A stretch of DNA of 64,000 nucleotides, from NCBI RefSeq assembly GCF_055900595.2, contig NZ_CM148325.1; one strand, given 5' to 3'. The position numbers and the translations under genes were made by a program. The notes under the pieces are model-generated. The model ran no database searches. It was not told the origin of the DNA and saw only the letters and a program-made list of their open reading frames with translations. Shown here in pieces: positions 6,814 through 9,626 of the stretch; positions within the stretch are counted from its first letter, which is position 1; every line of letters begins with the position of its first letter.

Positions 6814-7239
6814 TATTCCTCCTTTTCGGATTTTTTAAGTATCGATAAGTTTATCTCTCAGCATACATGTTGAACAAAATATCTTAAACAATAAAATATA
6901 TTGTTTCTCCCTTTTCATGCATCTAATTATATTTTTGAAGTAATCTGTGCTGATTGCATTAAAATAAACAATATGGAAAGGTTATTTCATAATACCTATA
7001 ATAAATATTTTTGTTCGGTTTTTGGTATATAAATAATTGACATGCAGCATATATAATAAAATTATGAAAAATTAATTAATATATCTTTTACAATGTATCA
7101 TTATTTTTTCAACGTTCTCTTTGGTATTTTGTGATTAACATCACACGAATAAAGGAGTTTGTGAAAAATTAACATGAATAAATCCTGTACCATCGTTGGA
7201 CTCTCCCTCCAAAAGTTGGACATCCAACTGATTAAGGTT

Positions 7240-7640
7240 AGTTTTTATGGCAAAGCCAAAATATTTTCTCTAAACCGAATAAGCTGTAGTTAATCATTAT
7301 ATTGCCGGACACGATGGTACACGTCGTACCGCTGAACGTTTTGGTGTTGAAGAAACATCAGAGCGATGCTGGGTCAAGGGCTGGCAACTCCACGGTATTG
7401 ATGGTATTACATGGCAAAATGACCGCGGCTCTCCTGAGTTTCGACTGACAGTTGTCCTGAAGGTTTGAGTGAAGAACTTACCATGCGCTAGGCCACTACA
7501 CAGTTTAATATATCAAATGAAACCATTATCTGGCACTGGGTGAAGGTTTACAAAGATACTGGTGAAGAAGGACTTATGAACATAAAACCAGGCCGGAGCA
7601 AGGACATGACAAAACTGTCACGAACGGCGCAAAAGTGGCT
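7240..7640 (+). pseudogene. IS3-family (IS150-group) orfA remnant with stops and frameshifts
   Basis: Fragments MAKPKYFL / AVVNHYIAGHDGTRRTAERFGVEETSERCWVKGWQLHGIDGI / YKDTGEEGLMNIKPGRSKD resemble IS150 orfA HTH protein. Confidence 0.45.
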
Positions 7641-7642
7641 CT

Positions 7643-7732
7643 TCCTTGGATGTATCTCTATATTTTCATACATCTGTTATCACTTAACCTGTTACTGTCC
7701 TTCAAACGCAGGAGATTCAGGGGGCCAGTCTA
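7643..7732 (-). mobile_element. Miniature IS2 remnant (diverged IRR-proximal segment plus IRL, interior deleted)
   Basis: tggatgtatctctatattttcatacatctgttacacttaacc resembles rc of IS2 right end; ggagattcagggggccagtcta is the exact rc of the IS2 left end at 8244-8265. Confidence 0.5.
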
Positions 7733-7863
7733 ACCGCTAAGAACATGTTCCCGAAAATTGAGATAAACACGTTATGACAGCAACGTAAAATAAAACAGCG
7801 TTTTTTAGTCATAATGAACATGTAGAGTCCTTTTGTTCATACTCTGTGATTATCTCCATACGT

Positions 7864-8216
7864 TCATCTCTGGCGCTGCCAGATAGCGTTTTCGTTCTTA
7901 CAGTCAATGCGCACCCGATACTGAATATCGGCTTTCTTCCCCCGGGCGGTGAGATGCACTGTGACTAAATTATCACCTTTACTTACCAGCTCACGAAGAT
8001 TCACCCAGACAACAGGATGCTGCTGACTGAAGATCACCTAGTCATCTTTCCAGTGAAGCACCTGTTTCTGGAGATAGTCCCGTTTGACGCTGGCTGCAAC
8101 AGCCGATGATTCCTGCCCTTCACATCGTGGAAAACTGACGGTTCTGTTTTTATCAGTAGCCAGTGATGATACACAAATACCGAAGGTGAGCAGAATTGAA
8201 GAGAGTGTTTTGTTTA
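7864..8216 (-). pseudogene. Small secreted-protein gene remnant (in-frame TAG, no start codon before IS2)
   Basis: Minus translation ...LSSILLTFGICVSSLATDKNRTVSFPRCEGQESS...KDD*VIFSQQHPVVWVNLRELVSKGDNLVTVHLTARGKKADIQYRVRIDCKNENAIWQRQR*. Confidence 0.3.
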
Positions 8217-8243
8217 TTTACAGAACCCCATCATGGATAGCTC

Positions 8244-9574
8244 TAGACTGGCCCCCTGAATCTCCAGACAACCAGTATCACTTAAATAAGTGATAGTCTT
8301 AATACTAGTTTTTAGACTAGTCATTGGAGAGCAGATGATTGATGTCTTAGGACCGGAGAAACGCAGACGGCGTACTACACAGGAAAAGATCGCTATTGTT
8401 CAGCAGAGTTTTGAACCGGGAATGACGGTCTCCCTTGTTGCCCGGCAACATGGTGTGGCAGCCAGCCAGCTATTTCTCTGGCGTAAGCAATACCAGGAGG
8501 GAAGTCTTACTGCTGTGGCTGCCGGAGAACAGGTCGTTCCTGCCTCTGAACTTGCTGCCGCCATGAAGCAGATTAAAGAACTCCAGCGTCTGCTCGGCAA
8601 AAAAACGATGGAAAATGAACTCCTTAAAGAAGCCGTTGAATATGGGCGAGCAAAAAAGTGGATAGCGCACGCGCCCTTATTGCCCGGGGATGGGGAGTAA
8701 GCTTCGTCAGCCGTTGTCTCCGGGTGTCGCGTGCGCAGTTGCACGTCATTCTCAGACGAGCCGATGACTGGAAGGACGGACGCCGCAGCCGTCACACGGA
8801 TGATACGGATGTGCTTCGCCGTATACACCATGTTATCGGAGAGCTACCCACATATGGTTATCGTCGGATATGGGCGCTGCTTCGCAGACAAACAGAACTT
8901 GATGGTATGCCTGCGATCAATGCCAAACGTGTTTACCGGATCATGCGCCAGAATGCGCTGTTGCTTGAGCGAAAAACCTCTGTACCGCCATCGAAACGGG
9001 CACATACTGGCAAAGTGGCCGTGAAAGAAAGCAATCAGCGATGGTGCTCTGACGGGTTCGAGTTCCGCTGTGATAACGGAGAAAAACTGCGAGTCACGTT
9101 CGCGCTGGACTGCTGTGACCGTGAGGCACTGCACTGGGCGGTCACTACGGGCGGCTTCGACAGTGAAACAGTACAGGACGTCATGCTGGGAGCGGTTGAA
9201 CGCCGCTTCGGCAACGAGCTTCCGGCGTCTCCAGTAGAGTGGCTGACGGATAATGGTTCATGCTACCGGGCTAATGAAACACGGCAGTTTGCCCGGATGT
9301 TGGGGCTTGAACCGAAGAACACGGCGGTGCGGAGTCCGGAGAGTAACGGCATAGCAGAGAGCTTCGTGAAAACGATAAAGCGTGACTACATCAGTGTCAT
9401 GCCTAAACCAGATGGGTTAACGGCAGCAAAGAACCTTGCAGAGGCGTTCGAGCATTATAACGAATGGCATCCGCATAGTGCACTGGGTTATCGCTCGCCA
9501 CGGGAATATCTGCGGCAGCGGACCAGTAATGGGTTAAGTGATAACAGATGTCTGGAAATACAGGGGCAAATCCC
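8244..9574 (+). mobile_element. IS2
   Basis: Left end TAGACTGGCCCCCTGAATCTCCAGACAACC at 8244; InsC/InsD ORFs; right end ...GGGGCAAATCC near 9574; no clean 5-bp target duplication seen. Confidence 0.9.
8335..8700 (+). CDS. insC: IS2 InsC (orfA)
   Basis: [56 protein letters not shown]... Confidence 0.9.
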
Positions 9575-9626
9575 CCACCTGAACGCCAATAATTCTAACA
9601 AATACTCGCAACACATTCACTTTTAA
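8658..9626 (+). CDS. insD: IS2 InsD (orfB) with stop codon lost; reads ~17 codons past the IS2 end
   Basis: 322-aa ORF ...[20 protein letters not shown]...; canonical TAG after ...CLEI appears as CAG (gaaatacagggg). Confidence 0.8.

Follow-up and report, generated by a model that had tools for sequence, protein, structure and literature searches.

A full-length IS2 variant with an altered right end in an Escherichia coli island near the kps capsule locus

A full-length copy of the insertion sequence (IS) IS2 lies in the 64,000-nucleotide stretch of DNA analysed here (the window; NCBI RefSeq assembly GCF_055900595.2, contig NZ_CM148325.1), with two further IS-derived pieces on its left and the gene of an MFS transporter on its right (Table 1). 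Two bases in its right end are changed, one of which removes the stop codon of the transposase frame insD, while the other replaces the terminal A of the element by C. The junction between this right end and the adjoining flank occurs in 52 complete Escherichia coli genomes, and the same junction is joined to at least five different structures on its left. Crossovers were found inside the IS2 bodies, which argues for homologous exchange rather than transposition. We consider it likely that the region represents the recombination seams of a pathogenicity island of E. coli, close to the kps capsule locus, and has no function of its own. The searches covered 5426 complete E. coli genomes for the chromosome and 72,556 plasmids, and matches are reported as the best place in each record. 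Over the 3-kb region around the IS2 copy, the chromosome of the chicken isolate E. coli PK8261 and three further genomes match at 100% identity, and the whole arrangement is present in 9 of the 5426 genomes.

Table 1 Features of the window around the IS2 copy (window positions)
Feature	Position	Strand	Remarks
SPATE-type S6 peptidase gene	1118-4942		RefSeq
AbgT transporter gene	5254-6813		RefSeq
5' remnant of an IS3-family (IS150-group) element	7197-7615	+	Left inverted repeat TGGACTCTCCCTCCAAAAGTTGGACA... and about 123 codons of orfA
628-bp block from the sitABCD / yebF-like / ROK-regulator locus	7616-8243		IS breakpoint on either side
Miniature IS2 relic, 86 bp	7647-7732	-	Internal-deletion derivative; IS2 positions 1-22 fused to the last ~63 bp
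yebF-like pseudogene	7864-8217	-	RefSeq "YebF family protein; internal stop"; internal TAG stop, translation ...HWKDD*VIFSQQHP...
Full-length IS2 variant, 1331 bp	8244-9574	+	End-to-end gapless alignment to K-12 IS2A
IS2 left inverted repeat (IRL), 42 bp	8244-8285	+	One substitution relative to K-12, A to G at position 32
insC (orfA), 121 aa	8335-8700	+	Protein 100% identical to K-12 InsC
insD (orfB) frame, 322 aa (301 aa in K-12)	8658-9626	+	17 aa substitutions relative to K-12; DDE motif context kept
IS2 right inverted repeat (IRR), 41 bp	9534-9574	+	Two lesions: R14 T to C at 9561, R1 A to C at 9574
Conserved flank from the IS2 right end to the MFS transporter gene	9575-10041	+	Fixed side of the junction; flank in 61 genomes, junction in 52
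MFS transporter gene	10042-11334		RefSeq
5'-truncated phosphoethanolamine transferase gene, then further IS debris	after the MFS transporter gene		RefSeq
kps capsule genes	from ~45.6 kb (45650)		RefSeq

The IS2 copy and its right end

A first-pass annotation of the window, made from the letters alone, had recognised three IS-derived pieces in this region, and all three were correctly identified, as is shown for the leftmost by its InsJ homology, for the second by an exact IRL together with a match to the IRR-proximal part of IS2, and for the third by the alignment over 1331 bp. When the two IS2-derived segments were aligned to the IS2 reference, both proved to descend from IS2. The full copy matched K-12 IS2A (insC1/insD1) at 1269 of 1331 positions (95.3% identity), with 62 differences and no indels. 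It is thus a colinear element of about 1.33 kb with about 95% identity, and it shares with IS2A the length, the arrangement of IRL and IRR, the InsC protein and the two overlapping open reading frames (ORFs). The A6G site for -1 frameshifting is intact (AAAAAAG at 8652-8658, IS2 position 409). Pfam recognised the helix-turn-helix (HTH) domain HTH_Tnp_1 in OrfA (E = 1.8e-19), and HTH_21, the DDE core rve (E = 1e-19) and rve_3 in OrfB. The copy differs from IS2A in the 62 substitutions, the 17 changes in InsD, a CAG codon, a terminal C and the lack of a 5-bp duplication, and it also stands at a junction common to 52 genomes and is therefore fixed and not recently mobile.

The insC gene carries about 19 nucleotide differences from its K-12 counterpart, all of them silent, compared with the 17 amino acid changes in InsD. 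Strong purifying selection thus seems to have acted on OrfA as this IS2 lineage evolved.

The stop codon TAG of insD reads CAG at 9561-9563, which adds 21 codons in all. Seventeen of these lie at or beyond the end of the IS, as the first-pass annotation had stated. In the RefSeq annotation of the matching record, the coding sequence KZY07_RS03755 (8335-9539) is called a transposase, "incomplete; missing C-terminus", and flagged as a pseudogene. Contrary to this, the transposase frame is complete and reads through the position of the normal stop for another 21 codons. The lost stop codon sits within the right inverted repeat, at R12-R14, and it is the R14 change that removes it.

The other lesion is at the very end of the element. 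The IRR reads ...ATCCC instead of ...ATCCA, and the change at R1 removes the CA-3' donor terminus. Lewis and co-workers described the inverted repeats of IS2 as imperfect, with an IRL of 42 bp and an IRR of 41 bp, and found the IRR, which ends in CA-3', to be the exclusive donor in the first step of transposition (PMC3299598). In the same work the outer 11 bp of the IRR form the cleavage domain, which is bound sequence-specifically and whose mutation abolishes minicircles, and positions 12-13 are two unprotected base pairs between the cleavage domain and the binding domain (PMC3299598). R14, canonically T and C in this copy, lies just past these unprotected positions. Because the sole donor end has a C at R1, the copy is very probably immobile, that is, unable to start transposition though its genes are intact. 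The description of the copy as intact in the first-pass annotation thus applies to the length, orfA, the frameshift site and the DDE core, and fails at the right terminal nucleotide, which is C and not A. What sets the copy apart from a canonical IS2 is the missing CA-3' end of the IRR, the missing 5-bp direct target duplication and an InsD that does not end after 301 aa at the TAG of the IRR. The copy is IS2 by descent, and with its terminal C and the R14 change the IRR is very probably no longer a functional end.

The 21-residue extension is probably harmless to the transposase, since a C-terminal fusion of OrfAB to green fluorescent protein transposes in vivo as efficiently as the wild type (PMC3219604). 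A consensus scan found no outward hybrid promoter leading from the IS2 right end to the MFS transporter gene on the plus strand at 9400-10100, and the 8 hits of the scan as a whole do not exceed what shuffled sequence gives (6.4 +/- 3.1).

The right junction and exchange between IS2 copies

An 81-nt probe made of the IS2 end and the right flank matched 52 genomes and was 100% identical, including the CAG, in 35 of them. CAG is accordingly found in at least 35 of the 52 junction genomes, among them strains that keep just a fragment of about 230 bp of the IS2. In many junction genomes the annotation under the match is merely an "integrase core domain" fragment. The terminal C was present in all six junction-bearing loci that were aligned (the window, L002, L003, L010, L013 and L014), each ending in ...AAATCC-C, while K-12 IS2A and the copy of strain AR13438, at another chromosomal site (L012, NZ_CP097170.1 360-1690), end in ...AAATCCA. 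Single-base errors do occur in long-read assemblies, and the pseudogene flag in RefSeq might seem to fit such an error. That the CAG, and possibly the terminal C, arose in the sequencing or assembly of this one genome is nevertheless practically excluded, since the 81-nt junction is identical in 35 independent complete genomes, whose hosts were chickens, pigs, goats, cats, humans and a monkey, and each of the six loci examined has the terminal C. Neither a private mutation nor a read error, the CAG is an allele specific to this locus. Strains of the L003 type carry the terminal C and still read TAG, so that, as judged from this distribution, the loss of the terminal A appears to have preceded the loss of the stop.

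A 90-nt probe for the IS2 end matched exactly in five records only, all of them window-type loci. The nearest copies outside the junction aligned to this probe only up to position 89, i.e., without the terminal C, and among the best places per record no second site had an end with CAG and terminal C. The flank beyond the junction is shortened in about 6 of the 61 genomes that carry it, where the copies begin further in, at other breakpoints (query positions 65-167). No IS2-free form of the MFS flank was seen among the 61 flank genomes, with the left side read for these shortened copies (about 6) only.

No target duplication flanks the full IS2, in agreement with the first-pass annotation. The left flank reads ...GGATAGCTC and the right flank CCACCTGAAC, which gives AGCTC against CCACC (or CCCAC), whereas K-12 IS2A has the 5-bp duplication ATTAC on both sides. 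The first-pass annotation had taken the missing duplication as a sign of recombination between IS2 copies, and the population data bear this reading out, both by the five or more left structures at one junction and by the mosaic IS2 bodies. In the window the left partner is the yebF-like pseudogene. It is a sugar-utilisation cluster in L002, an IS21 fragment beside fimbrial genes in L003, the gene of an HTH protein in L014, and in L010 a truncated, diverged IS2 fragment beside the gene of an outer-membrane protein; the same fragment is found in L013.

The bodies of the IS2 copies at this junction are themselves mosaic. The copy in L002 has 26 differences from the window copy in positions 1-555 and a single one in 556-1331, its left part being K-12-like, and a binomial estimate puts the chance of such clustering at about 2 in 10^9. 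L014 is identical to the window at 36 of 36 positions in 1171-1206 and then carries a diverged tract, confined to 1207-1259, that is 98.1% identical to the remnant type and 75.5% to the window. In L010 the identity of the remnant to the window copy is 75.6% at IS2 positions 1099-1259 and 100% at 1260-1331, with the switch at 1259/1260. In strains cq9 and C5 the fragment of about 230 bp is 75.6% identical at 1099-1259, with an excess of GC-to-AT changes (23:12), and 100% identical from 1260 into the flank.

The left junction also exists without IS2. In strains CS5L and 135 the sequence is 99.9% identical to the window as far as position 8243, exactly, and goes on as AGCTC|ATTGTATT... into the ROK regulator gene and its operon. 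Strain 135 (L009, NZ_CP080260.1 2719100-2729160) has two copies, about 1.9 Mb apart, of the segment that comprises the SPATE and abgT genes, the IS remnant, the miniature IS2 and the yebF-like pseudogene. In one copy the segment is joined to IS2 and the MFS module, the arrangement of the window, and in the other it runs into the ROK/ABC-transporter operon. Because this strain carries both versions, the window-type locus is a duplicated island segment fused to the MFS module.

Two other origins of the missing duplication were weighed. A simple insertion, after which point mutations removed both the duplication and the terminal base, would suit a full-length copy of an element that normally makes 5-bp duplications, as in K-12 IS2A. 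The flanks, however, come from different loci, as the left flank runs into the ROK operon in CS5L, strain 135 and GF43, and the right flank has other left partners in more than 40 genomes. When AGCTC is aligned with CCACC, no more than 1 of the 5 positions agrees, and local decay cannot explain this mismatch, since the left flank is 99.9% identical to its homologues. Simple insertion with decay is therefore very improbable, and the IS2-free left form effectively refutes it. An adjacent deletion or inversion by intramolecular transposition of a resident IS2 could have made the left junction without recombination between two copies, and the breakpoint exactly at the left terminus of IS2 (8243/8244) is predicted by both mechanisms. 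This origin is unlikely, though less so than insertion with decay. The right end, the sole donor end of IS2 (PMC3299598), has no CA-3' in any of the junction strains examined, and the crossovers within the IS2 body, at 555-575 in L002, 1206/1207 in L014 and 1259/1260 in L010, are a sign of homologous exchange. Elements of the copy-out-paste-in type are not known for adjacent deletions.

Recombination between IS2 copies remains the preferred account, and it suggests the following history. The right end of an IS2 would have become fixed beside an accessory module of MFS-transporter and phosphoethanolamine-transferase genes before this module spread among E. coli, and the T-to-C change in the InsD stop would be a later allele specific to the locus. 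The stranded IS2 would then have served as about 1.3 kb of portable homology, and recombination with other IS2 copies may repeatedly have swapped the DNA on its left; no target duplication is expected where the left DNA was exchanged in this way. In the lineage of the window, the incoming DNA would be a copy of the SPATE-abgT island segment ending in an IS2 that had inserted after AGCTC, between the yebF-like pseudogene and the ROK-regulator operon. This segment would already have held two older scars, namely the truncated IS150-group element at 7197-7615 and the abutting 628-bp piece from downstream of sit with its IS2 relic.

Several points weigh against this account. The progenitor insertion that it presupposes (the IS2 right end with AGCTCATTG... 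/ AGCTCATTGTATT...) had no junction-covering match in the 5426 genomes. As to the order of events at the junction, the short remnant forms may themselves be recombinants and not ancestral. The last 72 bp of the IS2 are nearly undiverged next to a remnant tract that is about 25% diverged, and the short forms could therefore derive from recombination with a diverged IS2-like element. The IS2 variant of AR13438 also has no duplication (TCTGC against GGCAG), which makes a missing duplication common and, by itself, weak evidence. The proposed immobility of the copy is carried over from published work on canonical IS2, and a transposed copy with CAG elsewhere in a locus-bearing genome could be hidden where matches are given as the best place per record.

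The AR13438 copy was considered as a clean mobile comparator with a target duplication and was dropped, as its flanks do not match. This copy, with the normal TAG and CCA end, adjoins asrA where the 5' end of that gene is truncated, and its lack of a duplication points to a further rearrangement associated with IS2.

IS elements are well known to act as portable homology in the mosaics of pathogenicity islands. The present locus shares with such mosaics one constant and one variable flank, crossovers inside the IS and missing duplications, and nothing in it is different in kind. Its particular point is that the anchoring copy is apparently disabled at its donor end.

Whether the immobilised IS2 was kept for a reason other than neutral persistence was also considered. 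The transposase with its 21 extra residues might act in trans on other IS2 copies, or the copy might be favoured as a recombination anchor in the assembly of islands beside the MFS/phosphoethanolamine-transferase module. The basis for such a reading is that orfA and orfAB are intact after long residence and that InsC is 100% conserved despite the silent changes in its gene. Moreover, the stop codon of IS2 is situated where the transposase binds the right end, and one substitution there would at once extend the protein and change the site to which it binds. We regard either role as improbable, more so than an origin of the left junction by intramolecular transposition.

The pieces on the left of the IS2

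The leftmost IS-derived piece had been described as an IS150-like orfA remnant, in a region given as 7180-9626. The remnant exists, and its limits are 7197-7615. The left end was set at 7197 (TGGACTCTCCC..., an IS150-type terminal repeat) by comparison with an intact IS3-family element on a plasmid of Salmonella salamae (L016), to which the remnant is 89.3% identical in DNA at L016 positions 1200-1620 and with which homology runs to 7614/7615. It is 88% identical to an orfA pseudogene of E. coli M3, and this homology stops exactly at 7615. The orfA of the remnant contains three in-frame stops and one frameshift and ends abruptly at 7615. Translated search (tblastn) against InsJ of IS150 gave 40% amino acid identity over 75 aa (E = 2e-13), and a Pfam search on the stop-masked sequence gave a weak match to HTH_28 (E = 3e-4) that is below the gathering score.

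The remnant belongs to the IS150 group by a left terminal repeat that begins with TG (TGGACTCTCCCTCCAAAAGTTGGACA, compared with TGTACTGCACCCATTTTGTTGGAC in IS150), followed by an InsJ-homologous orfA with an HTH. It resembles IS150 and the ISKpn1-like elements in its left end, TG.ACT...GTTGGAC, and in the N-terminus of OrfA, MAKPKY.... Unlike IS150, only the first ~419 bp are left, with stops and a frameshift, and IS150 itself is excluded. The orfB DDE region and the right inverted repeat of a complete element are missing, since the homology of the relatives ends about 420 bp into an element of about 1.4 kb. Among intact elements, its nearest relatives are annotated as "IS3 family transposase" without a name of their own. 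They lie on plasmids of Salmonella, Pantoea and Citrobacter and have 95% identity to the E. coli M3 copy and 89% to the remnant in the window. Copies named ISKpn1 by the Prokaryotic Genome Annotation Pipeline have about 74% DNA identity to the M3 homologue. The label "IS150-like" is therefore fair at the level of the group, and the element is not IS150. RefSeq carries no annotation for it.

The block that follows is a piece of the chromosome downstream of the sit genes. It is 97.8% identical over exactly 628 bp to strain GF43, where it sits directly after sitABCD, between sitD and the ROK regulator gene, and is followed by the genes of the ROK regulator, a glycerophosphodiester phosphodiesterase and an ABC transporter. 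In SMS-3-5 the sequence downstream of sitD is 88.6% identical to 7616-7754. SMS-3-5 and about 30 further genomes have the first 139 bp of the block, with the miniature IS2, downstream of sitD, after which an IS1 interrupts the sequence. The ORF annotated as YebF family within the block is a pseudogene and represents a diverged, island-borne paralogue and not the chromosomal yebF, which encodes the secreted E. coli protein YebF.

The miniature IS2 in this block had been placed at 7643-7732, and its existence is confirmed, with correct limits at 7647-7732. Its IRL is exact at 22 of 22 positions (7711-7732). On the IRR side, a stretch of 40-50 nt is 82-87.5% identical to the IRR-proximal end of IS2 (E = 7e-9 and 4e-6 in BLAST within the window), and TAG and the terminal CCA are kept. 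The relic has no target duplication (TTCCT against ACCGC) and no annotation in RefSeq. It occurs in 61 of the 5426 genomes, always in the same flank context in the three locus types inspected, and in none of the 72,556 plasmids searched. Both its deletion junction and its flanks are the same in SMS-3-5 and GF43, which together with the window represent these three locus types.

With both IS2-type termini in the correct inverted arrangement and a CCA at the IRR-side end, the 86-bp element has the look of a miniature inverted-repeat transposable element (MITE) derived from IS2 and moved in trans by the IS2 transposase. Such an element would occur at several unrelated sites, each with a duplication, and the copies found here share their flanks on both sides in all three locus types, so that they represent one copied locus rather than independent insertions. 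The absence of a target duplication and of plasmid copies and the retention of only 22 of the 42 bp of the IRL also speak against mobility, and we hardly believe that the element is a MITE. The relic is, by this comparison of sequences, evidently old and part of the sit-downstream block, which the IS150-group fragment merely abuts. The three pieces had been called nested in the first-pass annotation, and this part of the description is incorrect. Homology to orfA stops at 7615, and the sequence from 7616 onwards is part of an unrelated block, contiguous with sitABCD in GF43; as 7616-7646 is already sit-downstream sequence, a miniature IS2 nested in the IS150-like remnant is ruled out.

An exact 13-nt direct repeat, TGTTCCCGAAAAT, occurs at 7746-7758, shortly after the miniature IS2, and at 9667-9679, about 93 bp past the full IS2. 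As a sign of a shared flank it was set aside, since it is probably due to chance: the match does not extend, and the homologous sequences of GF43 and SMS-3-5 read CGTTCCCGAGAT.

Island context and meaning

IS fragments are abundant across the surrounding island in the RefSeq annotation of the matching record, and most of the strains with this island are of chicken origin. A second IS3-family element with an internal stop occupies 11796-13244 and 13296-14509 and adjoins the truncated 5' end of the phosphoethanolamine transferase gene. The only Rfam match in 5000-16000, an ALIL frameshift pseudoknot (RF01497, 116 bits) at 13577-13693, belongs to this different IS. The phosphoethanolamine transferase gene is intact (1662 bp) in strains EM03-18-08 and cq9. 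An ORF of 61 aa for a toxin of the PemK/MazF family lies at 14618-14803, between the IS3 element and ugpB, with no antitoxin partner annotated, and is probably a fragment of plasmid origin. The block at 28000-44500, which separates the IS-rich island from the kps genes, resembles a cryptic prophage or an integrative element. It contains genes for YfjI, an inovirus Gp2-family protein, an antirestriction protein, YeeU/CbtA toxin-antitoxin components and DUF932, several of which are frameshifted.

An IS2, an IS150-group relic and an internally deleted IS2 relic as seams of a mosaic island are all features of well-known kinds. What the present analysis adds is the lesion in the terminal base, the exact coordinates, the finding that the pieces abut, and evidence, from its distribution among genomes, that the loss of the stop is an allele fixed at this locus. 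The importance of the region is limited and mostly practical, for annotation and for the reconstruction of the island, and such consequence as it has is structural. Four unrelated blocks were joined exactly at 7615/7616, 8243/8244 and 9574/9575, namely the SPATE-abgT segment, the sit-downstream piece, the IS2 and the MFS/phosphoethanolamine-transferase module. Even when its donor end is dead, an IS copy can stay in place as a fixed landmark and drive rearrangement through homology long after its transposition has ceased.

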